DNA from: an uncultured Phycisphaeraceae bacterium
GTDB taxonomy: Bacteria; Planctomycetota; B15-G4; JADJEK01
Assembly: GCA_964580365.1 (NCBI GenBank)
Contig: CAZOLL010000001.1
Location: 1 to 46,226, forward strand
DNA: 46,226 nt
Direction of reading: 5' to 3'
Shown here: positions 13,846 to 46,226 of the stretch, piece after piece
Position numbering within the stretch: the first letter of the stretch is position 1
Layout: every line of letters starts with the position of its first letter
Position numbers and translations under genes: made by a program
The notes under the pieces: model-generated
Seen by the model: only the letters and a program-made list of their open reading frames with translations
Told to the model about the DNA's origin: nothing
The model's database searches: none

Positions 13846-14102
13846 GGGTCGATCACCTCCAGCTTCACGAAGAAGTCGCCGCGCTGCGGCTCGATGAGTC
13901 GCCACTGCTCCTGCGGAACCTCACCGTCGTTCTCGATGCACATGAACGGCGGGCAGATCGTCGGCGGGAAGTGACCGTGCTGACACGGCTCGCCCGGACC
14001 GATGCTCACGAGGCGGCGCAGGCGGAAGCGCACCACGCGATCGCCGCGCGCACGCGCGATGGCGCGGACGTCAGGCGGGGGAGCCACTGGCGAGCCTCGC
14101 AC
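13842..14102 (-). CDS. Hypothetical protein (start uncertain, GTG at 14102 or 14087)
   Basis: High GC3. The C-terminal part CIENDGEVPQEQWRLIEPQRGDFFVKLEVIDP looks like genuine protein. Confidence 0.5.
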   Translation of the reverse strand: MRGSPVAPPPDVRAIARARGDRVVRFRLRRLVSIGPGEPCQHGHFPPTICPPFMCIENDGEVPQEQWRLIEPQRGDFFVKLEVIDP

Positions 14103-14271
14103 CGCGCTCGTACTTCGCCGACACCTCGCGCGCCTTGTCGCGGATGCACAGCTCGAGCGCGGCGGTCTTGGAAAGGCCGAGCTGCTGCGCGATGATGGCG
14201 AGCAGCTTGGTCCCCTCGATCGACATGGAGTAAGACGTCTTCCGGTACCGACGACCTGGTGTTTTGCCCAT
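14071..14271 (-). CDS. Ribbon-helix-helix (Arc/CopG-like) DNA-binding protein, leaderless
   Basis: MGKTPGRRYRKTSYSMSIEGTKLLAIIAQQLGLSKTAALELCIRD shows a basic arm, beta strand and two helices. The ATG lies 7 nt after the -10 box TATGAT. Confidence 0.6.
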   Translation of the reverse strand: MGKTPGRRYRKTSYSMSIEGTKLLAIIAQQLGLSKTAALELCIRDKAREVSAKYERGARLASGSPA

Positions 14272-14307
14272 GCGGTACATCATACCGTGCCACTGACCGA
14301 CGATCAA
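14271..14307 (-). promoter_or_regulatory. Sigma70-type promoter with palindromic operator motif (leftward, leaderless)
   Basis: The minus strand reads TTGATC-N17-TATGAT-GTACCGC-ATG. The motif TGCGGTACATCATACCGTGCC lies at 14271-14291. Confidence 0.65.
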
Positions 14308-15861
14308 CTGGCTGCCGCTTTTCGCGCGGACCCGGGGCTTCGGAAGAAGTTCGAGGGGATCGTCGCCGCGCGCTCGCGGACGTTCGACGGCGACACGCAC
14401 CCGTTCTACACGTTCGAGCCGCAGCCCTATCAGCTCAAGGTGCTCCGCGGGAAGAAGCCGGTCATCGGCTTCTGCGCCGCGAACCAAGTCGGCAAGTCGA
14501 CGATCGGCGCGTTCTGGATCGCGTCGCGCCTCATGGGCTTCGACCCGACCAACGGGAACAAGGAGTTCCCCGGACCGGGCCGGTACTGGGCGTGCACGAA
14601 GGGCGACCTCATCGACGGGTTGAAGCGGAAGGTGATGGAGTTCCTCCCGCCGCACGAGATCAAGAAGGAGCTGAACGGGTACGGCCGGCAGTACATCGAG
14701 ATGAAGAACGGCCGGTGGGTGAAGTTCAAGTCCTACGACCAGCCGCGCTCCGCCTTCCAGCAAGAGTCGCTGAACGACCTGTGGAACGACGAGGAGCCGC
14801 CGCGGGAAATCTGGACCGAGCAGAAGACGCGCCTCCTGCGCTTCGGCGGTCAGATGCTCCTCTCGTTCACGCCCGTCGAGGGCTCGATCTGGATGCACGA
14901 GGTCTTGTTCGAGGAGGGTGCCGACAAGGTCGTCGACTTCGTGAAAGCGGGGATGCGCGACAACAAGTACCTCAAGACGGAGCACATCGAGGCGTACATC
15001 CGCGACTTCCGCGACGATCCCGACCAACTCGCGATCCGCGTGAACGGCGACTACCGCCTGATGAGCGGCGCCGACATCTTCGATCAGGAGCAGCTCGAGG
15101 CGTACTGGAAGAAGACCGTCGACCCGCAGCGCCTCGTGTACTTCGACGAGGAGGGCGCCGCGCAGACCGTCGACGACGTGAACGTGCGGCCGTACCACCT
15201 CTCGGTGTGGCGACCGCCGGAGACGGGACACCGCTATGCGATCGGCGGCGACGTCGCGGCCGGGCTCGCGAAGGGCGACTGGTCGGTCGCGTACGTGGGC
15301 GACGTCGATCGCAACGAGCTGGTCGCGCGCTTCCGCGGCAAGATCGACAGCTACGACTACGCCGACGAGCTCGCGGCGATGGGGTACTGGTACAACACCG
15401 CGAAGATCGGCGTCGAGACGAACTTCGGCTCCACCGCGGACCGGCTCTTCAAGCTCGACTACCCGAACCTCTTCCGCCGGCTCCGCTTCACCGGCGCGAC
15501 GCGCTCGACGACGAACAACATCGGCTGGCTCACGAACGCTCCGTCGAAGGAGCACATGGTCGGCGACTTCCGCGCCGCGTTCATGGACGGGATGATCGCG
15601 TTCCACGATGCGAAGCTCATCGACGAGATGCGCCGCTTCCGCTGGCTCGCGAAGGACCAGCCCGGCAAGCACGGCTGCGGCGCGATCACGGGGAACGACG
15701 ACTGCGCCATCGCCGCGATGATCACGTTGCAGGTGATGAACTCGGTCGATGAGCCGTCGCAGCGCGTCGGCCTCAGCTATGACGAGCGCCTCGTGACGAA
15801 GATCGAGGAGGCCGCGGAGAAGGGCTACGAGGAAGAAGAAAACGAAGCCCCCTGGGATTGA
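14287..15861 (+). CDS. terL: Terminase large subunit
   Basis: GTG at 14287. Walker A GFCAANQVGKST, Walker B-like LWNDEEPP, and a C-terminal nuclease-like region. The upstream part of ORF 14002.. overlaps the divergent RHH gene. Confidence 0.85.
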   Translation: MPLTDDQLAAAFRADPGLRKKFEGIVAARSRTFDGDTHPFYTFEPQPYQLKVLRGKKPVIGFCAANQVGKSTIGAFWIASRLMGFDPTNGNKEFPGPGRYWACTKGDLIDGLKRKVMEFLPPHEIKKELNGYGRQYIEMKNGRWVKFKSYDQPRSAFQQESLNDLWNDEEPPREIWTEQKTRLLRFGGQMLLSFTPVEGSIWMHEVLFEEGADKVVDFVKAGMRDNKYLKTEHIEAYIRDFRDDPDQLAIRVNGDYRLMSGADIFDQEQLEAYWKKTVDPQRLVYFDEEGAAQTVDDVNVRPYHLSVWRPPETGHRYAIGGDVAAGLAKGDWSVAYVGDVDRNELVARFRGKIDSYDYADELAAMGYWYNTAKIGVETNFGSTADRLFKLDYPNLFRRLRFTGATRSTTNNIGWLTNAPSKEHMVGDFRAAFMDGMIAFHDAKLIDEMRRFRWLAKDQPGKHGCGAITGNDDCAIAAMITLQVMNSVDEPSQRVGLSYDERLVTKIEEAAEKGYEEEENEAPWD

Positions 15862-15885: not shown

Positions 15886-16293
15886 ATGCCCAAGTACCAG
15901 CTCCCGCACGACTCCGATGGCGTCCCGATGCAGGTCTTCGGGCTGATCCCGCACGACGGCGTCGACACCACCACCTTCCACAACCTCGGAACGGTGGCGG
16001 CCGGCGCGGTCGGCGTGTTTCCGACGAACGGATCGTTCCTCGAGAACGCGGCCTACGAGTTCTGCTTCTTCGACAACGCGGACCAGGAAGACGGCATCCC
16101 GCCGAACGTCGTGTACGCCGTTGGCGGATCGGCGCTCGCCGACGCGCCGCTCGTGAGCGAGCACCGACACCCAGCATCATCGGTGGCGATCCTGCGCCTG
16201 CGTTTCTTCGCGGGACAGACGAAGATCGCGTTCCGCAACCCCGCCGGAGGCGGCGGCAAGACGGTGCTGATCACGGCGAAGCGCATCGGCTGA
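15886..16293 (+). CDS. Hypothetical protein
   Basis: AGGAG SD. 135 aa with normal composition. Confidence 0.65.
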   Translation: MPKYQLPHDSDGVPMQVFGLIPHDGVDTTTFHNLGTVAAGAVGVFPTNGSFLENAAYEFCFFDNADQEDGIPPNVVYAVGGSALADAPLVSEHRHPASSVAILRLRFFAGQTKIAFRNPAGGGGKTVLITAKRIG

Positions 16294-17207: not shown

Positions 17208-17656
17208 CCGAGCTCGTCGTCCTCGGCGTCATCGCGGTCGCGGCGCTCGTCGTCGCGTACCTGATGGCCCGCCACGCGAACGAGGCGGCGAGCGAGCAGA
17301 TCGAGACGTACCTGCTGCACGTCGAGAAGCTCGAGAAGTGGATCGAGACGGAGCGCGGCGATCGCGCGGTCGCGATGAAGGACGAACGCGAGTCCTTCGA
17401 GCAGGCGAAGAAGGCGTTCTACGGCACGATCGAAGGGCTGCGACGCCGCGCGACCGACGCCGAGAACACCGTGCTCACGCAGAACCAGCAGATCCACGCG
17501 CTCCTCACCGAGCGCACGCAGTCGATTCAGGAAGTTCCGACCCAACCGCCACAGCCCCGGAATGGACTCGGCCGCGCGCGGCTCGCGAGGGAGCCCGTGC
17601 CGACGCCGATTCATGACGACAACGTCGAGGGCACCGGAGATGGTGGCACCGGGTAG
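17204..17656 (+). CDS. N-terminally membrane-anchored coiled-coil protein
   Basis: TM segment LVVLGVIAVAALVVAYLM, then a charged helical region. Confidence 0.6.
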   Translation: MTELVVLGVIAVAALVVAYLMARHANEAASEQIETYLLHVEKLEKWIETERGDRAVAMKDERESFEQAKKAFYGTIEGLRRRATDAENTVLTQNQQIHALLTERTQSIQEVPTQPPQPRNGLGRARLAREPVPTPIHDDNVEGTGDGGTG

Positions 17657-18506
17657 GTACTCGTCCGCGCCGGCTCCGTGGATGGTCGGCATGCAGCAAG
17701 GCATGGGCGGTCCGCCGTCGGGTGGTGGGTGGCCGTCGCCGCCGGACCCCGGGCTGGTGTCGCCGCAGCAGCCGGCGCCGATCCAGGGCGGCGGCGGTCC
17801 GCCTCCTCAGCCGCAGGAACCGCCCGGTGGCGCGGCCGGACAGATGGGCATGCAGGCCATGAACGGCCCGCTCGGCCAGTACGCCGCGAAGGGCGCGTAC
17901 GACTGGCTGTCGACGCCCATGACGCAGAACACGCCGAGCGCGCTGAACGGTCAGCCGGTGTCGGAGATGTTCGCGCAGCCGAGCTACGCTTCGCCCGGCC
18001 TCAGCCCGTCGTACACGCCGTTCGCGCCCGGCGGCGCGGCGACGCAGGGCCTCGATCTCTCGGGCTCGATGGCGCTGCCGAACATGCCGGGCACCGCGGG
18101 CTTCGGAGGTGGCGGCGCAATGGCTCCCGCAGCCGCTCCTGCCGCGGCGCCCGCTCTCGCTCCCGCCGCTGCCGCCGCGCCGGCCGCTGCTGCGCCTGCC
18201 GCCGGACTCGCGGGCGCCGCAGCTCCGGCGTTGACCGCCGCCGCGGGTCCCGCCGCCGCCGCACTGCCCGCCGCGGCGAGCGCCGCCGCTCCGATCGCGG
18301 CTGCCGCCGCTCCCGCGGCCGGCGCGCTGACCGCCGCCGCCGCACCGGCCGCGGCTGGTGCACTCACCGCGGGAGCCGGCGCTCTCGGCGCGGGCGCGCT
18401 CACGGCGGGAACCGCCGCCGCCGGCACCGCCGCCGCGGGCGCGGCGACCGCCGGACTCACGACCGCGCTGATGGCCGCGCTCCCGGCCGCGCTGGCGTTC
18501 ATCTGA
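17640..18506 (+). CDS. Low-complexity Pro/Gly/Gln-rich then extremely Ala-rich protein
   Basis: GGAG SD before the ATG at 17640. High GC3 throughout. The C-terminal roughly 130 aa are almost only A/P/G/L/T. Its stop overlaps the portal start (TGATG). Confidence 0.55.
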   Translation: MVAPGRYSSAPAPWMVGMQQGMGGPPSGGGWPSPPDPGLVSPQQPAPIQGGGGPPPQPQEPPGGAAGQMGMQAMNGPLGQYAAKGAYDWLSTPMTQNTPSALNGQPVSEMFAQPSYASPGLSPSYTPFAPGGAATQGLDLSGSMALPNMPGTAGFGGGGAMAPAAAPAAAPALAPAAAAAPAAAAPAAGLAGAAAPALTAAAGPAAAALPAAASAAAPIAAAAAPAAGALTAAAAPAAAGALTAGAGALGAGALTAGTAAAGTAAAGAATAGLTTALMAALPAALAFI

Positions 18507-20596
18507 TGGCGGAGACGCTCACGCTCTCGCGCGCGAAGGCGCGGCGCAATGACGACGAGGAGGCGCTCCTGCGTTTGCAGGAGGCGTACCGGCCGCAGCG
18601 ATCGTTCAAGTACAACCGCGAGGCGACGTGGTTCCAGACGATCCTGTTCTGCCACGACCTGCAATACACCTCGTTCAACATGAACGCGGGGAAACCCTTC
18701 TTCATCGGACAGGGCGACTCGCGCCGCGTGCGCATCACGTACAACGTGATGAAGCGAATGGCCGAGGACGCGAAGAGCGTCTACGTCCAGCAGCCCTATG
18801 ACTGGAACGTCGTCGCGATGACGCGCGACACGGCCGACATCGAGGGATCGCACCGCGCGGCCGACCTCGTCCGCATCTGGCACGAGAAGTTCCACATCCG
18901 CAAGAAGCAGCTCGCGCTCGCGGACTACCTCGTGAAGATGGGCAACGGCTTCATCCACGTCGACTGGGACGCGGAGGGCGGCGACGAGCTCGAACTCGCG
19001 ATGCCCGACGGCGAGGTCGTGACGGTGAAGACCGGCGATCTCACGATCGCGTGCGACAACCCGTACCGCTGGTTCTTCCATCCGAGCGCGACGCACGTGG
19101 AAGAGAGCCCGTTCGCGACGCGGCGCACCGCGGAGTCGCGCAACTGGGTGCGTCAGCACTTCCCGAAGGTCGACCTCGACGAGCTCGGCGACCTGACGCA
19201 GATGGACGCCTCGAGCATGTGGGAGCACCAGCTCCTCAACCTCTCGAGCACGAACTCGTTCGGCCTCGGCGCGCAGGAGGCTCCGCCGAAGGGCGGCTCG
19301 TTCGTCGAAGTGTTCCGCCACTGGGAGATGCCCGGCCCCGACTACAAGAAGGGCCTGCACATCGTCGCGCTCGGCACGGGCAACGGACCGAAGAAGGTCG
19401 TGCACGTCGGCGACATGCCGCACGATCGGCTGCCGGTCTTCCACTTCGGCATGATCCAGGTGCCGAACTGCCTCTGGCACGACACCTTCCTGACCTCGTG
19501 CGTGTCGCCGCAGCGCGAAGTGAACCGGCGCATCTCGCAGCTCGTCGAGTGCGGCAACCTCACGGCGAACCCGCAGGTCGTCGTGCCGTCGAACGGCTTC
19601 GCGCCGCAGGTGCTCACGAACCGCCCCGGCGGCGTGATGCGCCAGGACCCGAACGCGCCGTGGCGCCCGTACTACCTCCCCGGCCCGAATATGCCCGCGT
19701 ACGCGGTGCAGCAGATCGAGCGGTCGTTGCAGATGATGGACTCGATCGCGTCGCCGTTCGGTCCGTCGTCGTCTTCGCTGCCGAAGGGCGCGACGTCGGG
19801 CATTCACTTCTCGCTGCTCCAGAACATGGCGCAGCAGAAGACGTCGACGATGACCGAGAACTGGGAGTGCGGCTGGAAGGACGTGTGGTCGTTCGCGATC
19901 GACACGTACCGCAGCTACGGCATTCTCCCGCGGCACTACGAGTACGGCTTCGAGGGGAGCTGGCGCGACTTCTACCTCGCCGGCCGCGACCTGCCGAAGC
20001 GCATCCGCTTCGAGATCACGAAGGGCTCGAGCGCGCCGAAGTCGCGCGCGACGTCGTTCGCCGAGTGGATGGAGATTCTCAAGGTCGTGGGTCCGATGCT
20101 GATGCAGGACCCGCGCGCGATGAACCAGTTCTGGACCGACATCGGCTACGGCGACATGGTGCGCACGTACCGCGACCGCACCGAGGACGCGGACAAGGCG
20201 CAGCGCAACATTCAGGAGTGCCTCGAAGGCAACCAGCCGATCATCGACGACTGGGACGATCCCGACATCCACATGCCGATCTACGAGTCGGAGATGAACA
20301 CCGATGCGTACAAGAAGCAGTGGCCGGATCGCGCGCGGATCTCGCTGTTCGCGCTGCGCGAGATGTTCAAGGCGAAGAAGCTCGAGCAGCTCATGCAGGC
20401 CCAGGCCGCGCTCGCGATGGCGGGCGCGCCGAAGCAGCCCGGTGCCGGCGAACCTCCGATGAGCGCCGCGCAGGGACCGTTCGCCGCGGCGGAGCCGGGC
20501 GCGCCGGTCGGCGGCAACGAGCCGCACATGACCGACGGCTTCTCGCAGACGCCGAACCAGTTCGCCAATCGCGGCGGACGCGGGCACGAAGGCTGA
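18506..20596 (+). CDS. Portal protein (probable)
   Basis: 696 aa (MAETLTLSRAKARRNDDEEALLRL...). Called from size and position between terminase and scaffold/capsid. Confidence 0.65.
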   Translation: MAETLTLSRAKARRNDDEEALLRLQEAYRPQRSFKYNREATWFQTILFCHDLQYTSFNMNAGKPFFIGQGDSRRVRITYNVMKRMAEDAKSVYVQQPYDWNVVAMTRDTADIEGSHRAADLVRIWHEKFHIRKKQLALADYLVKMGNGFIHVDWDAEGGDELELAMPDGEVVTVKTGDLTIACDNPYRWFFHPSATHVEESPFATRRTAESRNWVRQHFPKVDLDELGDLTQMDASSMWEHQLLNLSSTNSFGLGAQEAPPKGGSFVEVFRHWEMPGPDYKKGLHIVALGTGNGPKKVVHVGDMPHDRLPVFHFGMIQVPNCLWHDTFLTSCVSPQREVNRRISQLVECGNLTANPQVVVPSNGFAPQVLTNRPGGVMRQDPNAPWRPYYLPGPNMPAYAVQQIERSLQMMDSIASPFGPSSSSLPKGATSGIHFSLLQNMAQQKTSTMTENWECGWKDVWSFAIDTYRSYGILPRHYEYGFEGSWRDFYLAGRDLPKRIRFEITKGSSAPKSRATSFAEWMEILKVVGPMLMQDPRAMNQFWTDIGYGDMVRTYRDRTEDADKAQRNIQECLEGNQPIIDDWDDPDIHMPIYESEMNTDAYKKQWPDRARISLFALREMFKAKKLEQLMQAQAALAMAGAPKQPGAGEPPMSAAQGPFAAAEPGAPVGGNEPHMTDGFSQTPNQFANRGGRGHEG

Positions 20597-31693: not shown

Positions 31694-34600
31694 GTGCCGG
31701 GCATCGGCGACCAGTGGTACCAGCAGGGGTTGAAGCAGCAGCAGTGGCGCGCGCGACACGGCGACGAGCCGATGCCGCGCCCGTTGGACCCGCAGGCGAT
31801 CGGGCGCGCCGCCGCGCTCGAGGAGATGCGCCGCGAGGTCGAGGGGTGGGACCCGATCAGCCGCTCGCTCCTCGCGGGCTCGACGTCCTTCGCTGAAACC
31901 GCGAGCTTCGGGCTCCTCCCGCGGGAACGCATCTACCGCATGGCCGGCGGCGACCCCGAAATGGCGGCGCTCGCCGGGCAGGCGATCCGCGAGGACGAGG
32001 CGGCGCACCCGTGGACGGCCGGGCTCGCGTCGACGGCGGGCGGGCTGTACGGGATGACGACGGGCGCGGGCCTGATCTCGAAGGGCCTGTCGCGCACGGC
32101 GCTCCCGCTGGTGGGCCGGTACGCGCCGGAAGGCATCGCGAAGGGCCTTGCCGAGCCGATGACGCGGCAGCTCGCGCGCTCGGCGACGTCGTTCAGCGTC
32201 CAGCAGGCGGTGACGCGGGGCGGCGGGCAGATCGCCTACCGCTCGGCGACTGGGCAGCCGCAGGACTACCTCGAGTCCGCCGGAGAGGCGGTCCGCGGGG
32301 GCGCGCGCGGCGCGGTCGAGGGCGCGGTCTTCCCGATCGCGGGACAGGTGGCGCGGAACATCGCCGGCCGGGTGGTGCGGATCAAGCCGGGCATGCAGCC
32401 GACCCGGCTCCAGTCGATCGGGCGGGACGTGATCGGCGAGTCGGCGTTCTTCGCCGGTCTGTCCGCGGCGACCGCCGAACCCGGGCACCGGCTCGAGGCG
32501 GCGGGGCAGGGTGCGATCGCAGGCCCGCTCGCGTCGATCGGTTCGTGGGGCAAGAAGATCCGTGGTGAGGTGCCGCACGAGGGCCTGACGCCCGACGAGG
32601 TCGCCACGCTCGGCCCGCAGGTCGCCGAGGCCGAGGTCGCCGGCCGCGGGCTCCAGGGCGCGAACGACTTCCTGAACTCGACGGCCGCGCTCAAGAAGTA
32701 CGGGCCGGTGACGCCGGCGGCGCGCGCCGCGCTCCAGGCGGACCCGCAGCGGTTCGCCCGGCTCGACCCTTCGATGGACCGGGCGAAGGCGCCGGTGTTC
32801 CGGCCGGAGCGGGTCGCAGCCGCGCCGAACCCGAAGGTGCTCGCGGACGATCCGGTGGTGGGCTCGATCTACCGCGCCGAGACGACGCCGGCGGACTTCC
32901 GCGCGTTCGTGGATCGGCAGATCCCGTCGTTCCTGATGCCCTCCGAGCCGGACACGGTGCTGACGCCGAAGGAGAAGGCGACGCAGGCGGCGTTCGGCGA
33001 GCTCCCGCAGGAGGCGCTCCGCCGCGCCGGCGCCGACGTCATTCAAACGAAGCGCGGCACGATCGCGTTCTGGCCGGACCTCGTGTCCGAGGTGTTCCGC
33101 CACAAGGACAGCTCGAGCCGCGTCTACCTCGAAGGGCTGTTGAAGCGGCCGATCACGGGCAAGACGAAGTTCACGCACGGCGCGCTCGCGATGTCGATGA
33201 CCCGGCTCGCGAACAACGACGCGCTCGGCGAAGTGCTCGGGTACGGCGTCGGCCACGCGACGAAGACCGGAAAGGACGTCGCCATCACCGGCCGCGACGA
33301 GCAGGGGTACGAGGTCCGCACCGTCCTCACGACGCAGGAGAAGAAGCCCGAGGCGATCAAGGGCCTCATGCGCGCGGGGGCGAAGCGGATCGAGGTGCGC
33401 GACCCGACGCAAACGCCGGAGATCATCGGCGAGCGCGTGTCGACGGAGATCACGCCCGAGGGGCCGAAGCTGACCGGCGCGCCGGCGATCCCCGAGACGA
33501 CGACGCGGACCGAGCCCGGCCCGTCGCGAGAACTTCCTGGCAGGTTGATGTCTCGTCGTGCGGAAGATGCGCAGGAGATGCGCCGCCAGGAGCCGATGGC
33601 CGTCGACTCGAAGGGGCGCGTGTTCACGGTCGGGTTCGTCGCCTCCGGCCCGTCGCCCGGGCGCATGATCGAGGAGGTCTTCGGACGCCACGACACGCGC
33701 GAGGCGGCGCTCGCCGAGGTGGAGCGCGAGAACCAGACCAGCGCCACGAAGGCGCCGCTGACGGTGAAGCCCGGCCGCAACCCGCGGGAGTGGCTCACGG
33801 TCCGGCAGATCCCGTTCGGCGAGGTGGGCGGGTTGCACCAGCAAAAGGCGCTCGCGGACCGCGGCATGTGGGAGATCCAAAGTCGCGCCGCCGAGCAGCA
33901 GCAACGCGCGCTCGAGCGCGAGCTCGACCTCGCCCGCGAGCAGCAGCGACGCGCGCTCGAGCGCGAGCAGCAGATGGCGGAGATGCTCCCGCAGCCGGCC
34001 GGGCCGGGGCTTCCCGCGCCGCCGGAAATGAAGGCGCTGCCGCGCCCGAAGGGCGCGCTGATCCAGCACCCCGCGCATTTCATCGCCGGTGAAACCGGAC
34101 CCGCGCAGGTGACTGGGTCGCGGTCCCAGCCGCCCCGCGGCGCTGGCACGTCGCGCCGACGGCCGGCTCCCGAGGTCGCGAAGGCGCTCGGACGGCTCGA
34201 CGAGATCAAGGCGGGGCTGCGCGGCGGCACCATGAAGGCCGCGGACGTCCAGGGCGAGGCCCGGCAGCTCATGGGGCGCATCGACGAGATCGAGCGCGGC
34301 CAGCGGCTCGAGCGCGAGCCGGAGCGCATCGCGAAGCTGACGCACGCCGCGCCCGAGGCGGTGCAGGAGGGCGAGAAGTCGGTCCTGTACCCGAACGAGT
34401 TCGAGCAGGGCGGCGAGCGGTTCGGCGTCACCTACGCGGTCGTGCGCGACAAGGACATCGCCGTCTCGCACGACGACAAGACGCTGGCACGCAACCCGAA
34501 CTACCCGCGCGAGCTCCAGAACCGGAACCGCGAGCAGGACGGCCCGAAGATCGACGTGCAGGTGGCGGGGCTCCGCGAGGACCCCGGCCGCTATGCGCTG

Positions 34601-37600
34601 CCGTCGACGAGCGGCGACCAGGGACCGCCGGTGGTCTGGCGCGACGCCGAGGGCAAGATCGGCAAGCCGGGCGCGCTCTACGTGCTCGCCGGCAACGGCC
34701 GCATGATCGCGCTGCGCCGCTTCGCGCGGAAGTCGTTCGCCTACTCGACCGCGATGGCGGAGCAGGCGAAGAAGCTCGGCATCGACGTGAAGGAGCCGAA
34801 GGGCAAGGTGCTCGTCCGCATCCTCGACGACATGCCGTTCAAGGATGCGGCGAAGCTCGTCGGCAAGTTCCAGGGCGGCTCGAGCGCCCCCGAGGGTCGG
34901 TTCGAGCGCAGCCGCGGCGCGGCCGGAAAGGTCGGCCTCGAGAAGATGGGCGACGTCGTCGTGAAGTGGGCGCCGGATGGGCCGCTGAACGCGACGAACC
35001 TCGAGACGTTCGAGAAGAACAACCCCGACCTCGTGCGCAAGGTGTTCCCGGGCGCAGAGTCGGGCGTCGGTGTGGACGCCGAGGCGCGCGCGCAGCGGTA
35101 CAAGGACGTGCTGACCGGGATGCTGCCGCTCGACCTGCTCGACGCCGCGGCGCGGCTGCCGGAGCAGGTGCAGCAGGACATCTACGAGATGGCGCCGCAG
35201 CTCCACCGCTTCGCGGCTCTCGTGGTCGAGGGCAAGATCGACGATCGGTGGGACTTCATCCCCGACATGGCGCGCGCGATCACGGTGCTGCCGGAGATCC
35301 GCGAGCAGTTGAAGAACCTGAACCGCGCCGCGATGGGCGCGCTCCAGATCGAGCTCTTCAAGGGCGGCGGCGGGTCGTCGCTGCGCGACGTGGTGAGGGC
35401 GCTCGAGGGGCTCGGCGACGATCGCGCGCGCATGACGCTCGGCATCGCGATCGGGTGGAGCAAGGACCGCGACTCGGTCGGCTACATGGCGCGCCGCATC
35501 GCGGCGTACACGCAGCTCGCGCTCGACGGGTCGGCGAAGGCGCCGGCGACGATGTTCAAGATGTCGCACGAGACGAAGACCGGCGCGGTCGACTACGTCG
35601 CGGACTTGTTCAACAAGACGGTCAGCGAGCAGGCCACCGCTTTCCTCGAGCGCGTGCGCGCGAACCGCCGTACCCTCGATGCGGGCGTCGCGCTCGGAAA
35701 GCTCCAGAACAAGCTCTTCCCCGGCGTCGAGACGCTGAGTCCGAAGAACAAGCAGCACGCGGCCTACATCAAGTTCTACGACGAGATGATGGGCAAGGTT
35801 CGCGCGGGCGGCACGCTGGAGGAGCACGTCACGAACGCACTCGCCACCAAACCGACGAAGAACGCCGACTGGCTCGAGCTGCTCGAGGGATTCCTCCGCG
35901 GCGAGGCCAGCGAGGGAGAACTCCATGACATCGCAGCCCGGCACGAACCGTCTCGACCGACTCGCGAGCGCGGCGAGCGAAGCGAACCTGAACCCGAACG
36001 AGCTCCCGCTGGCGATGACGCCGCGGCGCGAGAGCCTGAACGACCTGTCGAGGATCGCGGCGAGCGAGAGCCCGGACATCGAGGAGCTGACGCAGGAGGC
36101 GCTGATGGACCTCGAGCGGAGCGGGCAAAGCGAATCAAGCACACCTACGTCCCCGCGCGAGCAGCAAGTGCTGAACGAATCCCTTCTGACCTTGTCCGAC
36201 ACCTAGACCAGCACCAGGTCGACGCGATCTCGCACGCTCTCGAGGCGCTGGACGCGGCCGACCCCGGGGCGCGCGGCTTCGTGATCGCGGACGGCACCGG
36301 CGTCGGGAAGACGCGCGAGATGCTCGCGGTCGCGGAGAAGTTCCGCCGCGAGGGCAAGGTGGTGGTGCTCGTTGGCCCGGCGAAGATCGGCCCGAAGGGC
36401 AAGCCGATCTACAAGAGCTCGCTGGCGAGCGAGGCGGAAGAGCTCGGCATCGCGCTCAACTGGGTGGCCGGCGGCACCGCCGCGCCCGGCCGCGTCAACA
36501 CGACTTCGTACTTCTGGCTCGACAAGGTCAAGGTGCCGAGCGGGGCGATCCTCCTGTTCGACGAGGCGCACGCGCTCAAGAACGCCGACTCCGGCCAGAC
36601 GAAGGCGGCGCTCGAGCTGATCAGCAAGGCCGACGCCGTCCTGTTCGCGTCCGCGACGATCATGGACAAGGCGGTGCACCTGCCGTACTTGGCGCGCGCT
36701 GGCGCGCTCGAGGGGCGCACCGTCGCCGAGCAGCTCGCGCACCTCGGGATGCGCCTCGAGGTCGAGCACCGCATCAACAAGAAGACGGGCAAGCCGTTCA
36801 AGCTCGAGCGGTGGATTCCCGACCCGAGGGCGCGAAGCCCGGACGGGAACCTGCGCGGCAGCCTCGAAGTGACGCGCCGCCAGGGAGAGCTCGTGCGGCG
36901 CATGGTCGCCAACGGCCGCGTGATCAAGCGCGAGATCGGCATGGAAGGCGTCTCGGTCACCGTCGACAACATCAAGCTCGGCGAGGCGTGGCAGGCCGTC
37001 GAGAACAAGCTGCGCGAGAAGTTCGACGGCAAGGTCTTGCAGATGCACGAGAGCATCCAGCAGGAGCCGTTCAAGATCCCGCACGTCGTCAAGATGGTGT
37101 CGGAGGAGCGCGCCGCCGGCCGCTCGGTGATCATCTTCGCCGCCCGCGTGAATGAGTCGGCCGCGGTGAAGCGCCGCTACACGAAGGAAGGCGAGGTCAT
37201 CGAAGAGGTCGTCCACCAGACCGAAGGCACGTTGAAGACGTTGCGCGAGAAGTTGATCGAGGCCGGCATCCCCGAGGCAGAGATCGGAGAGATTCACGGT
37301 GGCGTGAAGGCCGATGTGCAGGAGCGGAGTCGGGTCGAGTTCCAGAGCAACAAGCGCAAGGTGATCATCGCGACGGCCGAGTCTGGCGGGGCCGGCATCA
37401 ACCTCGACGACACGACGGGCAAGTTCCCGCGCACGATGATCGTGATGACGGCGCCGTACTCCGGCGTGACGAACGCGCAGGCGTGGGGCCGCATCTGGCG
37501 CCTCAACACGAAGGGCGACGCGCGGATTCGGTACGTCTACTCGGACAGCGCGACCGACGTGCGACGCGCGGCGATCGTCACCAAGAAGATGCTCCACCTC

Positions 37601-38191
37601 GGCGCGGCGCTCCAGGGCGAGCACAAGCGGCTGATGGAGGTCGTCGACGGGATGACCGACATCTCCGACGCGGCGATCGACCAAGTCCTCGGCGAAACCG
37701 TCGCGCACTCGAGCAAGCCGGACACGGTCGGCAAGCTGCCGGTCGCGCCGCTCGACACCGCCGCGGAGCGGGGCCTGATGAACGAGCTGCGCTACAAGTG
37801 GGCGAAGGGCGACAAGAACGCCCCGGTCCGCGTGAAGGCGCGCGTGCTCGACGCGGCAAAGGTCGTGGTCGAGAAGCTGCGCGGCATGGGCATCGACGCC
37901 ACGCTGCGCGAGTCGGACGGCATGGTCACGCTGAACCGCAAGTTCGCGAAGGAAGCCGAGCCGAGGGCGCAGGACATGATCCGAACCGAGAGCGTCGAAA
38001 CCGCGTCGGCCGAGTCGCTGCGCGAGATGGTGAAGCGGTCCGAGGAGATCAGCCCGCTCGAGCAGATCCAGGCGAAGCTCGCGATTCGGCTCGCCGAGCG
38101 GCCGGATGACGCCGAGTCGATCGCGCCGGTGCTCGACGAGCTGTCGGCGAAGATCGAGTCGCTGTACCGGAAGGGCAAGAAGCCGTGCTGA
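31694..38191 (+). CDS. Giant (2165 aa) polyvalent protein: glycine-zipper N-terminus, ParB/DdrB-like domain, SF2 (SNF2/strawberry-notch-like) helicase
   Basis: A single open frame. YPRELQNRNRE...VLAGNGRMIALRR is ParB-like. ADGTGVGKT (motif I), DEAHALKN (motif II) and QAWGRIWR (motif VI) mark the helicase. Codon bias drops between 35925 and 36206. Confidence 0.6.
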   Translation: MPGIGDQWYQQGLKQQQWRARHGDEPMPRPLDPQAIGRAAALEEMRREVEGWDPISRSLLAGSTSFAETASFGLLPRERIYRMAGGDPEMAALAGQAIREDEAAHPWTAGLASTAGGLYGMTTGAGLISKGLSRTALPLVGRYAPEGIAKGLAEPMTRQLARSATSFSVQQAVTRGGGQIAYRSATGQPQDYLESAGEAVRGGARGAVEGAVFPIAGQVARNIAGRVVRIKPGMQPTRLQSIGRDVIGESAFFAGLSAATAEPGHRLEAAGQGAIAGPLASIGSWGKKIRGEVPHEGLTPDEVATLGPQVAEAEVAGRGLQGANDFLNSTAALKKYGPVTPAARAALQADPQRFARLDPSMDRAKAPVFRPERVAAAPNPKVLADDPVVGSIYRAETTPADFRAFVDRQIPSFLMPSEPDTVLTPKEKATQAAFGELPQEALRRAGADVIQTKRGTIAFWPDLVSEVFRHKDSSSRVYLEGLLKRPITGKTKFTHGALAMSMTRLANNDALGEVLGYGVGHATKTGKDVAITGRDEQGYEVRTVLTTQEKKPEAIKGLMRAGAKRIEVRDPTQTPEIIGERVSTEITPEGPKLTGAPAIPETTTRTEPGPSRELPGRLMSRRAEDAQEMRRQEPMAVDSKGRVFTVGFVASGPSPGRMIEEVFGRHDTREAALAEVERENQTSATKAPLTVKPGRNPREWLTVRQIPFGEVGGLHQQKALADRGMWEIQSRAAEQQQRALERELDLAREQQRRALEREQQMAEMLPQPAGPGLPAPPEMKALPRPKGALIQHPAHFIAGETGPAQVTGSRSQPPRGAGTSRRRPAPEVAKALGRLDEIKAGLRGGTMKAADVQGEARQLMGRIDEIERGQRLEREPERIAKLTHAAPEAVQEGEKSVLYPNEFEQGGERFGVTYAVVRDKDIAVSHDDKTLARNPNYPRELQNRNREQDGPKIDVQVAGLREDPGRYALPSTSGDQGPPVVWRDAEGKIGKPGALYVLAGNGRMIALRRFARKSFAYSTAMAEQAKKLGIDVKEPKGKVLVRILDDMPFKDAAKLVGKFQGGSSAPEGRFERSRGAAGKVGLEKMGDVVVKWAPDGPLNATNLETFEKNNPDLVRKVFPGAESGVGVDAEARAQRYKDVLTGMLPLDLLDAAARLPEQVQQDIYEMAPQLHRFAALVVEGKIDDRWDFIPDMARAITVLPEIREQLKNLNRAAMGALQIELFKGGGGSSLRDVVRALEGLGDDRARMTLGIAIGWSKDRDSVGYMARRIAAYTQLALDGSAKAPATMFKMSHETKTGAVDYVADLFNKTVSEQATAFLERVRANRRTLDAGVALGKLQNKLFPGVETLSPKNKQHAAYIKFYDEMMGKVRAGGTLEEHVTNALATKPTKNADWLELLEGFLRGEASEGELHDIAARHEPSRPTRERGERSEPEPERAPAGDDAAAREPERPVEDRGEREPGHRGADAGGADGPRAERAKRIKHTYVPARAASAERIPSDLVRHLDQHQVDAISHALEALDAADPGARGFVIADGTGVGKTREMLAVAEKFRREGKVVVLVGPAKIGPKGKPIYKSSLASEAEELGIALNWVAGGTAAPGRVNTTSYFWLDKVKVPSGAILLFDEAHALKNADSGQTKAALELISKADAVLFASATIMDKAVHLPYLARAGALEGRTVAEQLAHLGMRLEVEHRINKKTGKPFKLERWIPDPRARSPDGNLRGSLEVTRRQGELVRRMVANGRVIKREIGMEGVSVTVDNIKLGEAWQAVENKLREKFDGKVLQMHESIQQEPFKIPHVVKMVSEERAAGRSVIIFAARVNESAAVKRRYTKEGEVIEEVVHQTEGTLKTLREKLIEAGIPEAEIGEIHGGVKADVQERSRVEFQSNKRKVIIATAESGGAGINLDDTTGKFPRTMIVMTAPYSGVTNAQAWGRIWRLNTKGDARIRYVYSDSATDVRRAAIVTKKMLHLGAALQGEHKRLMEVVDGMTDISDAAIDQVLGETVAHSSKPDTVGKLPVAPLDTAAERGLMNELRYKWAKGDKNAPVRVKARVLDAAKVVVEKLRGMGIDATLRESDGMVTLNRKFAKEAEPRAQDMIRTESVETASAESLREMVKRSEEISPLEQIQAKLAIRLAERPDDAESIAPVLDELSAKIESLYRKGKKPC
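35925..36206 (+). CDS. Embedded +1-frame ORF (93 aa) inside the linker of the giant ORF
   Basis: GGGAGA SD 5 nt before the ATG. Third positions are almost all G/C in this frame but only about half G/C in the giant-ORF frame over the same bases. Confidence 0.5.
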   Translation: MTSQPGTNRLDRLASAASEANLNPNELPLAMTPRRESLNDLSRIAASESPDIEELTQEALMDLERSGQSESSTPTSPREQQVLNESLLTLSDT

Positions 38192-41791: not shown

Positions 41792-42114
41792 TGTACGTCG
41801 TGTCCCAGGTCGAGCCGCTCCACGACAACGTGCTCGTGAAGCCGGAGATGGAGCCCGAGAAGGTCGGGGTGATCATCATGCCCGAGCAGTCGCGGCGCGA
41901 GCGCGCCGAGGGCGTCGTCATCGCGTGCGGCCCCGGTCGTCGCGGCGTGAACGGCGAGCTGATCCCGATGTCGGTGAAGGTCGGAGACAACGTGCTCTTC
42001 GGGAAGTACAGCGGCGCCGAGCAGGAAATCGGCGGAGAGAGCTACCGCATGATCCAAGACACCGAGATCATCGCGATCATCAAGGCGGTTCCGAGCGAGG
42101 AGGTTACGGTCTGA
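41791..42114 (+). CDS. groES: GroES/Cpn10 co-chaperonin homologue
   Basis: VEPLHDNVLVKPEMEPEKVGVIIMPE...GVVIACGPGRRGVNGELIPMSVKVGDNVLFGKYSGAE matches the Cpn10 pattern. AAGGAGGAG SD. Confidence 0.75.
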   Translation: MYVVSQVEPLHDNVLVKPEMEPEKVGVIIMPEQSRRERAEGVVIACGPGRRGVNGELIPMSVKVGDNVLFGKYSGAEQEIGGESYRMIQDTEIIAIIKAVPSEEVTV

Positions 42115-43580
42115 TGTTCCTCTCCACACGTGAAGGTGCGGCGTTCGCGGCGGGACTCGCCAGCGGCGCGCGCGAGAACATCCTCGTCGACAACGTCCCG
42201 GTGCGGCCGATGCTCGCCGGCGGATGGAAGAAGCACCCGTTCTGCCCCGGCTGGATGACGGCGAACGGCTACCTCGCGGACGAGAAGGCGTGGAGCTCGA
42301 CCGTCGCGAAGCTCGTCGCGTTCGAGGTGCACCAGCACGACTCCGGCCTCACGCTCGCGGACTTGTACCACACGAGCGGACCGGCACAGACCAACGCTTG
42401 CGTGGTCGAGCTGCTCGACATCGCGCTGCGCTTCGAGCTGTACCCGGGCGCCGGCTACGCGCTCACGTGGGGCACACCGCTCCCGATCGAGGAGTACGCG
42501 ACCGGCGTTCCGCCGCAGGTCACCGACGAAGACAGGAACGGGAGGTGGTATCCCGACGTCATCTACACGGGGCAGGCCGGCTCGCCGCGCAACCTCTTCG
42601 TGCCCGCGTTCTTCGACTGCGCCAAAGACCTCCGCCGCCTCGCCCACGGGACGCTGTTCGGTGCGTTCCAGGTGATGCGTCCGATTCAGCGCGTGAACTC
42701 GATCGGCGAGCTGGCGATCGGCGTGTGGTGGGACCCGAGCAAGACGTGGACGAAGCGCGCGTTCCCGGTGTACGACCGGAAGTACGGAGAGCGCGACGTC
42801 GTGCTCGACGGGTACAGCACGAACCACGTCGAGGTCGCCGAGCTTGCGTGCCTCTTCCTCGCGCTCCGCGACCCGCGCAGCTACCGGCAGCTCAAGGCGC
42901 TCGCGCTCGCCTTCCTCCGGTGGGACTGGTACTGCGGCGACGGCGGCGACGAGAGCAAGATCGGCCGCGGCTCGATTCCGTACGACAACAACTCCCGCAT
43001 GAAGGGCCGCTCGCTGATCCTGTGTGCGTGGGCGTTCCTCGCCGCACACGCGGCCGGTGACCAGGAGTTCAAGGACTACGTCGCTCTGCGCGCTGCGGCG
43101 CACGTGGCGAAGATCGCGGCGCTGTGGGACGGCAAGTTCACGCCGTCCGCGACCGCGCCGGACGGGCGGCACCTGTCCGTGCCGTGGGACGCGACGTGGA
43201 TGGTGTCGCTCATCGGGTGGGGCGCCGCGCTGTGCTCTCGCTGGATGGACACGCCGGGCGCCAGCCCGCTCGCGAACCGCGTCGCGGACTGGCTCGAGCG
43301 CCTGTTCGACGCCGGCCCGACGTTCGGGAAGCCCGGCGCGCTGCCGATCGACGTGCCGGCCTCCGGCATCGCCGACCTCGGCGGGGCGACGTGGTACTAC
43401 CCGCCGGGCGCGCCCGAGGCGAAGAACGAGAACATCCTGATCGGGACGGCGTCGTGGTGCTCGCACGTGCTCCGCGCCGTCGGGGGTCCCTCGCCGCTGC
43501 TCGACGCGCTCCGCGCTGCCGGCGAGCACTACCACTACCCGCTCGTGGACAGCACCCCCGTCATTGAGTTCGGCGGCTGA
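42114..43580 (+). CDS. Hypothetical 488-aa protein (possible tail-associated enzyme)
   Basis: TGATG-coupled to groES. Trp/Cys-containing globular composition. Confidence 0.6.
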   Translation: MFLSTREGAAFAAGLASGARENILVDNVPVRPMLAGGWKKHPFCPGWMTANGYLADEKAWSSTVAKLVAFEVHQHDSGLTLADLYHTSGPAQTNACVVELLDIALRFELYPGAGYALTWGTPLPIEEYATGVPPQVTDEDRNGRWYPDVIYTGQAGSPRNLFVPAFFDCAKDLRRLAHGTLFGAFQVMRPIQRVNSIGELAIGVWWDPSKTWTKRAFPVYDRKYGERDVVLDGYSTNHVEVAELACLFLALRDPRSYRQLKALALAFLRWDWYCGDGGDESKIGRGSIPYDNNSRMKGRSLILCAWAFLAAHAAGDQEFKDYVALRAAAHVAKIAALWDGKFTPSATAPDGRHLSVPWDATWMVSLIGWGAALCSRWMDTPGASPLANRVADWLERLFDAGPTFGKPGALPIDVPASGIADLGGATWYYPPGAPEAKNENILIGTASWCSHVLRAVGGPSPLLDALRAAGEHYHYPLVDSTPVIEFGG

Positions 43581-45873: not shown

Positions 45874-46226
45874 ATGGCGACAACCCACATCTTCCACGCG
45901 AGCGAGCTGCCGCTCATCGCGACGAACCCGGCCGCGTGGTCGCTCAAGCGCGAGGCCGGCGTCTTCTCCGACTCGGAGCCGGCCGCGCTCGGCCGCGCGT
46001 TCGCGCGCGCGATGGAGCTGGCGTGCAAGGTCGGCCGCGCGAAGGTCGACCTCGAGAAGGTGCGCGAGGAGTTCCAGGTCCCGATGGAGGACCTGCGCGA
46101 GCTGTGGGACCTCGTGAGCTACGACCCGGCGGGCTGGACGGCGGAGATGCCGTTCCACATGCGCTGGCCCTGCCCGGACGACAGCGGTGACACGATGGAG
46201 GTTCACTGCCGCGTCGACCGCGTGCG
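45874..46226 (+). CDS. Cas4/RecB-family PD-(D/E)XK exonuclease, N-terminal part; wraps the junction and continues in 3..764
   Basis: ATG at 45874 lies 7 nt after the -10 box TATTAT. The frame runs off the window end (MATTHIFHASELPL...WPCPDDSGDTMEVHCRVDRV) and matches the frame of ORF 24..764 once the 55-bp overlap is removed, giving about 353 aa in total. Confidence 0.8.
   Translation, partial: MATTHIFHASELPLIATNPAAWSLKREAGVFSDSEPAALGRAFARAMELACKVGRAKVDLEKVREEFQVPMEDLRELWDLVSYDPAGWTAEMPFHMRWPCPDDSGDTMEVHCRVDRV
46172..46226. repeat. Terminal direct repeat, copy 2 (circular-closure overlap)
   Basis: Identical to bases 1-55. Confidence 0.95.

Follow-up and report, generated by a model that had tools for sequence, protein, structure and literature searches.

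A probable +1-frame gene nested in the linker of a giant polyvalent-protein gene of an uncultured phage

Introduction

Why should the coding signal of a giant open reading frame (ORF) leave its own frame for 68 codons and then return to it? The question is raised by contig CAZOLL010000001.1 (46,226 bases; hereafter the window, meaning the whole stretch of DNA that was analysed), a phage genome in which an ORF of 2165 aa encodes a polyvalent protein with a helicase module. In the linker upstream of this module the codon signature of a genuine gene moves to the +1 frame, which has a Shine-Dalgarno (SD)-like sequence, a start codon and a stop codon of its own. The original prediction for this locus had offered three explanations, namely a small gene overprinted on a disordered linker, genes joined through programmed frameshifting, or a pair of compensating assembly indels, and had cautioned that the continuity of the giant ORF is not by itself evidence of its translation.

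The first explanation fits best. We are fairly confident that a +1-frame gene is nested in the linker of the giant polyvalent gene and that it would be translated independently, alongside the giant-ORF frame (frame 0). The feature is most likely a family-wide nested gene that has not previously been annotated. This reading is favoured because the +1 ORF comes with an SD and an ATG of its own, because its layout is shared with a close relative and about 40 further loci, and because SD enrichment, an excess of +1 openness and, in most close pairs, a lower ratio of nonsynonymous to synonymous substitution rates (dN/dS) accompany it.

Anatomy and composition of the nested ORF

The features needed to follow the argument are these, in window coordinates, all on the + strand.

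31694-38191, +, giant ORF of 2165 aa, a phage polyvalent protein (N-terminal region, ddrB-ParB domain, linker, Sbno-like SNF2 helicase), from the ORF list, Pfam and a G/C fraction at third codon positions (GC3) of 0.93
34412-34822, +, ddrB-like ParB superfamily domain, giant-ORF aa 907-1043 (Pfam PF18763, E = 4.5e-11, 43.4 bits, cut-off 27.6)
35914-35919, +, SD-like GGGAGA, 5 nt upstream of the ATG at 35925
35924-36127, +, frame-0 reading, a 68-aa low-complexity linker rich in R, E, P, G, A and D (aa 1411-1478), with only 2 aliphatic residues and a GC3 of 33/68
35925-36206, +, nested +1-frame ORF, ATG start, 93 aa plus TAG, about 10.1 kDa, pI 4.2
36128-36206, +, stretch that looks doubly constrained, frame 0 reading KRIKHTYVPARAASAERIPSDLVRHL, the conserved start of the helicase module, and +1 reading the nested tail, ...REQQVLNESLLTLSDT followed by the stop
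36170-37696, +, Sbno-like SWI2/SNF2 helicase module, aa 1493-2001 (Pfam AAA_34 at aa 1493-1553, Helicase_C_4 at aa 1879-2001)
36203-36205, +, frame-0 CTA leucine codon, A-ending in a gene with a GC3 of 0.93, which together with the next G forms the nested TAG stop at 36204-36206
36290-36313, +, Walker A motif DGTGVGKT, the positional anchor for all comparisons

Frame-0 GC3 fell from 0.93 gene-wide to 0.42-0.57 in 35900-36200, while the third base of the +1 frame reached 0.88-0.95 there. Over 35924-36127 the third positions were G or C in 33 of 68 frame-0 codons and in 63 of 68 +1 codons, in line with the original prediction of about half in the linker and nearly all in the +1 frame; at p = 0.93, the binomial probability of the frame-0 value is 1e-22. 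Over its entire length the nested ORF had a GC3 of 81/93, the 63/68 being its first 68 codons. In 45-nt windows, both frames were GC3-high in 35865-35920 and +1 GC3 was 1.00 from 35982 to 36125. Across 10,052 sliding windows in the 21 GC3-supported genes of the window, this was the sole internal stretch with a GC3 below 0.65; four other low-GC3 stretches all lay at the 5' ends of over-extended ORF calls.

The open stretch of the +1 frame begins at 35790, and the ATG at 35925 is the first start codon in it. The SD and ATG named in the original prediction are present at a spacing of 5 nt, and the phage's other genes carry GGAG or GGGAG 5-8 nt upstream of their starts, the gene at 15886 having caggagaactcgATG. 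Frame 0 has no ATG, GTG or TTG between 35789 and 36281 and the helicase therefore has no start of its own, again as predicted. No promoter or terminator was found at the nested locus.

The nested product contains 16 D+E and 7 K+R. AlphaFold2, run with 12 aligned peptides, gave a mean pLDDT of 66, with higher confidence for a helix at residues 52-68 (IEELTQEALMDLERSGQ). The prediction is of a largely disordered protein in which a single amphipathic helix has higher confidence. The peptide had no significant match in Pfam, PHROGs or PDB sequences. The profile hidden Markov model (HMM) of TnpV (PF14198) matched 0 of 10 nested peptides at an E value of at most 5, and a six-frame PF14198 search of the window's genome found no match, a result of low weight since the control genomes gave none either.

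Downstream of the linker, the stretch 36128-36206 had intermediate GC3 in both frames. When its frame-0 reading is aligned to those of five relatives, the residues R, P, L and L do not vary. A 34-nt block within it differs at one base from the closest relative, to which we now turn.

A close relative with both frames open

A HMMER search with the 93-aa peptide returned one clear homolog, P0007 (119 aa, 57-59% identity, E = 6.5e-14), which aligns to the very end of the nested peptide and shares with it the C-terminus LNESLLTLSDT followed by a stop. P0007 is encoded on L010, a 1.9-kb Logan contig from a different sample whose helicase is 69% identical to that of the window (mean column identity 76%). 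The arrangement of L010 is equivalent to that of the window. Its helicase frame is open from the start of the contig through an R/E/P/G-rich stretch into the helicase, and its +1 frame encodes P0007 from an ATG located 7 nt after GGAG to a stop at the same position as in the window. The indels between the two sequences are multiples of three, and three blocks of about 25-34 nt are nearly identical, with 0-2 changes each.

The two loci have entered the databases differently. The public record for the window's genome holds the 2165-aa ORF only, with the nested ORF unannotated. The public gene call for L010 consists of the 119-aa +1 ORF (14-373) and a helicase (394-1881) that begins at an internal GTG, by which the conserved N-terminus is cut off. 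Gene callers thus mishandle such pairs, as the window was recorded as a giant ORF only and L010 was split.

Layout across distant loci

Scanning IMG/VR with an alignment of five helicase N-termini gave 65 viral loci of 26-73% GC, 52 of them with the Walker A anchor. Among the +1 stretches that end no more than 200 nt from the anchor, the longest was taken as the nested ORF of each locus; not all loci are independent of one another. About 40 of the 52 have a +1 ORF, 56-120 codons long, whose end is separated from the downstream Walker A codon by about 40-170 nt (about 5 nt in L062 and L063). The helicases of lineages that share this layout are as little as 24-40% identical. The nested stops of relatives fall at the equivalent place, as ACC TGA, ATC TGA or TCC TGA.

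The most instructive of these loci are L014 and L015, giant polyvalent genes of 3434 and 3557 aa at 69% GC whose helicases are 37-38% identical to that of the window. In both, the only sustained low-GC3 stretch lies directly upstream of the helicase, with one other window flagged in L015. Their +1 ORFs begin with AAGGAGG, then 6 nt, then GTG or TTG, and end at a common site inside the conserved H/F-L-T of the helicase N-terminus. L026 has a start arrangement like these two, and L011, a short contig with a helicase 40% identical to the window's, has an equivalent layout. The nested ORF occurs both in giant fusions and in stand-alone helicase genes, in the latter within an N-terminal extension of 117-148 codons, and therefore travels with the helicase module. 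Helicase homologues that have no nested ORF are found in L072-L074 (contigs of 97-420 kb), L069, L048, L058 and L053.

Searches by similarity reached less far. GenBank phages held no DNA match to the window, scans of contigs from viruses, metagenomes and genomes with patterns and proteins taken from the window came back empty, tblastn of the window helicase against phages and plasmids gave no match, and sixty related genomes gave weak helicase matches only. Members of the family match cultured phages and plasmids only distantly. An all-versus-all phmmer comparison by frame over 150 codons was discarded as it was confounded by the flanking frame-0 domains.

On L012 (6310-8983, a phage contig of 54% GC), the Sbno-like helicase is a stand-alone gene of 627 aa that follows three small genes downstream of the portal gene. 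Four loci of 33-34% GC (L049, L050, L051 and L054) have a basic +1 ORF of 72 codons, about 170-390 nt upstream of the Walker A codon; it ends 170 nt rather than 74-104 nt upstream of the anchor, frame 0 there resembles an ordinary protein, and the ORF is possibly a nested gene of another kind. Another set of nested peptides (L036, L039, L044, L046, L047, L057, L060, L062, L067 and L079; 37-65% GC) has in common D-R-P-F-L-E-Q-L-E-E ... I-Y-x-N-P, and hhalign finds no link between this set and the window's group (probability 0.14%).

Composition, openness and start signals

In nearly all loci of at least 47% GC, frame-0 GC3 in the overlap was far below the norm of the helicase: 0.49 versus 0.95 in the window, 0.50 versus 0.93 in L021, 0.24 versus 0.59 in L040 and 0.27 versus 0.62 in L042. 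The three loci L072-74, which have no nested ORF and served as informal negative controls, showed no dip (0.72 versus 0.72). The third positions of frame 0 are the second positions of the nested frame, and their GC content ranged from 0.14 to 0.72 across genomes of 26-73% GC, always far below the norm where the norm is high. Such values are expected if the amino acids of the nested frame hold those positions. In AT-rich loci, the first positions of frame 0 were GC-richer than the norm (0.56 versus 0.43 in L043), and the composition of frame 0 is therefore constrained too.

Openness was evaluated by resampling synonymous codons given the protein of one frame and the local codon usage. For the window, the probability of an open +1 frame given frame 0 was 0.98 and that of an open frame 0 given +1 was 0.50, so the test has no power there, and the caution in the original prediction that such GC-rich sequence is almost stop-free by construction was well founded. 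The picture is different in ten AT-rich or mid-GC lineages, where the probability of an open +1 frame given the frame-0 protein was 0.0003-0.0125; the Fisher-combined P for +1 openness over 36 lineages was 4.7e-14. Frame 0 was in turn open beyond the expectation from the +1 protein in most low- and mid-GC loci (P < 0.01). On this sequence evidence the fusion or extension, and with it the giant fusion protein, is real, and the doubt that had been implied about the continuity of the 2165-aa ORF did not hold up in these relatives. An earlier statistic, the longest +1 open stretch in the gene, which in many loci was the nested one, was down-weighted and replaced by the resampling because a linker without F, L, I, M or V cannot create +1 stops.

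Start signals were enriched at the nested ORFs. The first nested ATG was preceded by an SD of at least 5 nt at a distance of 4-10 nt in 13 of 35 loci, compared with 36 of 1623 control +1-frame ATGs (2.2%) in the same genes (binomial p = 3e-13). Several of the nested SDs are full AGGAGG hexamers at 5-6 nt. In AT-rich loci, the nested ATG follows the upstream +1 stop by 0-10 codons.

Substitution rates gave a mixed picture, with dN/dS of 0.16-0.63 for the nested frame versus 0.9-1.5 for frame 0 in five of nine close pairs. In two more pairs the proportion of synonymous differences exceeded that of nonsynonymous differences (pS > pN) in the nested frame. Off-frame readings of the helicase, used as a control, gave 1.08-1.94. 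Substitution counts by codon position were mostly flat in the overlap.

Several results weigh against a nested gene under selection for its product, or limit what the tests can say. At the level of the peptide, comparisons between loci were negative: an HMM built from the window and L010 in either frame matched no further locus, comparison of two nested-peptide groups (A3 and A4) by hhalign gave a probability of 0.14%, leaving their homology unsupported, and the mean identity of distant peptides was 0.25 in the nested frame, 0.26 in frame 0 and 0.29 in +2, so that nested peptides are not more alike than those of the other frames. A motif seen by eye in the nested peptides, E-E-L-T-x-x-A, is statistically unsupported. 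Between the window and L010, differences by nested codon position were flat (30/25/29), and dN/dS gives the nested frame no clear advantage: it was 0.81 for the nested frame versus 1.48 for frame 0 over 85 codons, but 1.35 for the nested frame and 0.85 for frame 0 over the last 60, which include the stretch conserved in frame 0. The pair L014-L015 likewise gave dN/dS values that favour frame 0. The openness of the +1 frame is uninformative in GC-rich members, the window with its P of 0.98 included, and wherever the linker has few aliphatic residues the +1 frame stays open whatever the GC content. Finally, the combined p-values are optimistic because non-independent loci went into them and the stretch near the anchor was chosen for its length. 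As judged from the sequences at hand, position and signals are conserved more clearly than the nested sequence itself.

Alternative explanations

The alternative that survives best, and one that we consider improbable, holds that the +1 ORF is untranslated. Here a cluster of rare codons and an SD-like motif at the domain boundary would slow ribosomes while the upstream part folds, and the +1 ORF would be a by-product of a hydrophilic linker. The frame-0 codons CGA, GAA, CCT, GCT, GGA and CTA are A/T-ending and unusual in a gene with a GC3 of 0.93, as this account would have it, and it is comfortable both with the automatic openness of +1 over an aliphatic-poor linker and with distant nested peptides that are not detectably more conserved than those of other frames. 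It leaves three things unexplained, however: the spacing of SD and ATG (13 of 35 loci against 2.2% in controls), the excess of +1 openness in AT-rich lineages, and the low nested dN/dS of 0.16-0.63 where frame 0 is at about 1 or higher. In addition, other low-complexity stretches in the 3400-aa genes lack a sustained dip, the one other flagged window in L015 aside.

Frameshifting, the second proposal of the original prediction, we judge quite improbable. In this case ribosomes would slip by +1 near 35900-35925 and stop at the TAG at 36204, which would yield an N-terminal protein with an acidic tail and no helicase beside the full-length protein; in a variant, a -1 slip would lead back into the helicase. 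In its favour, the open +1 frame reaches upstream of the ATG as far as 35790, GC3 is high in both frames over 35865-35920, and the helicase frame is -1 relative to the nested frame, the geometry of a classical -1 pair. Yet an X XXY YYZ heptamer is absent from the last 45 nested codons of the window, L010, L014 and L015, and where one occurs (8 of 39 loci overall) it has no conserved position. The RNA folds worse than shuffled sequence (z = +2.08), and near 35900-35930 there is neither a frame-0 stop nor a recognisable +1 shift site. The nested ORFs have their own SD and start far above chance, and in AT-rich relatives an ATG 0-10 codons past the upstream +1 stop leaves no room for an upstream shift. 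Frameshifting is also unnecessary, since the +1 ORF has a start of its own.

A relic is very unlikely. It would require that ancestral compensating indels put an in-frame segment out of frame, and that the +1 signal is the memory of the old frame, untranslated now. The 'older-looking' codon composition of +1 and the flat substitution pattern over codon positions between the window and L010 would suit it. Against this, the layout is common to lineages with helicases 24-40% identical and genomes of 26-73% GC, and over such divergence the third positions of frame 0, if unconstrained, would have come to match genomic GC3. Nor does a relic account for the SD enrichment or the excess of +1 ORFs, and among the relatives none was seen with the +1 peptide in frame with both flanking domains.

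The third proposal, two compensating indel errors about 200-280 nt apart in the assembly, has only the frame change itself in its favour and a next to negligible probability, being ruled out by L010, an independent and diverged contig that shares both open frames and the conserved blocks, and contradicted by the same architecture in dozens of IMG/VR contigs and by a 55-nt terminal repeat that points to short-read de Bruijn assembly with k=55, a procedure that presumably makes few indel errors.

Proposed expression and function of the nested gene

We return to the nested gene as the preferred reading. The giant ORF would be translated straight through in frame 0, and a second gene would initiate at the ATG at 35925 via GGGAGA and terminate at the TAG at 36204-36206; we infer that the nested ORF is translated. 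Selection on 35924-36127 would act mainly on the nested frame, where normal codon composition is kept, and frame 0 would stay open and hydrophilic. The openness of frame 0 there is nearly automatic, since no codon can start with T in a frame that runs one base behind a GC3-rich one. Over its last 25 codons the nested ORF shares its DNA with the conserved start of the helicase module, and both readings are apparently constrained there. The constant linkage suggests that the nested product acts together with the helicase module, perhaps as a regulator or as an adaptor in assembly or packaging.

A broader proposal is tentative, and we think it rather unlikely: that low-complexity linkers of polyvalent anti-defence proteins systematically host nested genes, and that the 'linker' before SNF2/Sbno helicases is the alternative-frame reading of a gene for a dedicated helicase partner (packaging adaptor, chaperone or inhibitor). 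Such nesting, if it were systematic, would make the giant fusion protein and its small partner a single unit of inheritance and expression.

Comparison with known systems

Out-of-frame nesting of genes is an established feature of phages and bacteria, with lambda Rz/Rz1 and comS in srfA-B as examples. Rz1 lies entirely within Rz, in its +1 frame, and has a ribosome-binding site and a start of its own; a single mRNA serves for both products. The present locus resembles this pair in that a small gene on the same strand would lie fully inside a larger phage gene, in the +1 frame and with its own ribosome-binding site, here a sequence signal only. It differs in that the part of Rz overlapped by Rz1 is structured and the Rz and Rz1 proteins join in one complex of known function, whereas the host frame of the present locus encodes a low-complexity inter-domain linker of a virion/anti-defence protein of 2165 aa and the nested frame has the dominant coding signal. 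The comS gene of Bacillus subtilis, 46 codons long, lies out of frame in a domain-coding part of the synthetase gene srfA-B. Both cases involve a short ORF of regulatory size out of frame inside a giant multi-domain gene, but the ORFs described here are of 60-120 codons, lie in a linker, are phage-borne and are conserved across a helicase family, while comS is chromosomal.

Programmed -1 frameshift pairs such as dnaX, the phage tail chaperones G/GT and IS3 orfAB share with this locus a long downstream frame that is -1 to a short upstream frame and has no nearby start of its own. Unlike these pairs, the locus has no slippery heptamer or stimulatory structure, its short frame comes with an SD and an ATG, and its long frame extends open over more than 1400 codons upstream, with real domains.

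The host protein belongs to a described class. DdrB-ParB and SWI2/SNF2 are named as hub domains of polyvalent proteins, with mention of Strawberry-notch-like versions (PMC5512222). The giant ORF joins DdrB-ParB and AAA_34, Helicase_C_4 and ResIII on one polypeptide, in keeping with a class in which large phage or conjugative-element proteins unite several conflict-related domains. It fits this class (PMC5512222), to which P1 DarB belongs, in being very large and multi-domain, with a DdrB-ParB domain and a SWI2/SNF2 ATPase, and in its location among virion genes. The words 'overlap', 'frameshift' and 'linker' are all absent from the main text of that paper (PMC5512222), and nested genes in polyvalent proteins are therefore not described there. 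Our full-text literature search found no paper that describes nesting of a gene for polyvalent proteins or for Sbno-like helicases.

In phages and bacteria, few long genes nested out of frame have family-wide support, and such genes are poorly served by gene callers. If the reading is correct, about 40 of the 52 polyvalent or helicase loci of uncultured phages would carry an unannotated small protein at a fixed position beside the helicase module, and this protein would offer a handle on the assembly or control of injected anti-defence proteins that are poorly understood. The extremes of GC content help in reading such overlaps, as GC-rich members show the constraint on the nested frame and AT-rich members show constraint on both.

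The phage genome

The window is a whole contig out of an assembly of 887 contigs. It is taken to be a phage genome because its genes include those for the large subunit of a terminase, a portal protein and the major head protein. An exact direct repeat of 55 bases is present at both ends (1-55 and 46172-46226), which we take to be the signature of a circular molecule in a k=55 short-read de Bruijn assembly; the window is therefore probably a circularly assembled, complete phage genome of about 46.17 kb. Within the giant ORF, further Pfam matches to ResIII and Helicase_C fall in aa 1493-2001, and the first 424 aa of the helicase module are 37-66% identical to four relatives.

Low GC3 was also observed at the 5' ends of other ORFs. 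The longest ORF matching the portal protein (17678-20596) has low GC3 over about its first 270 codons; at about 17810-18050 the coding signal is in the frame of the ORF at 17562-18506, and in 18080-18350 two codon positions are both at about 0.9 GC, so that the frame is ambiguous. The portal gene probably starts near 18.5 kb. The portal and terminase stretches were considered as additional frame switches and rejected, as both lie at the 5' ends of over-extended ORF calls. Low GC3 also marks the 5' ends of the terminase ORF (in 14002-14380) and of the ORF at 41925-43580 (in 41925-42054), and the true starts of both are probably downstream of the longest-ORF starts.

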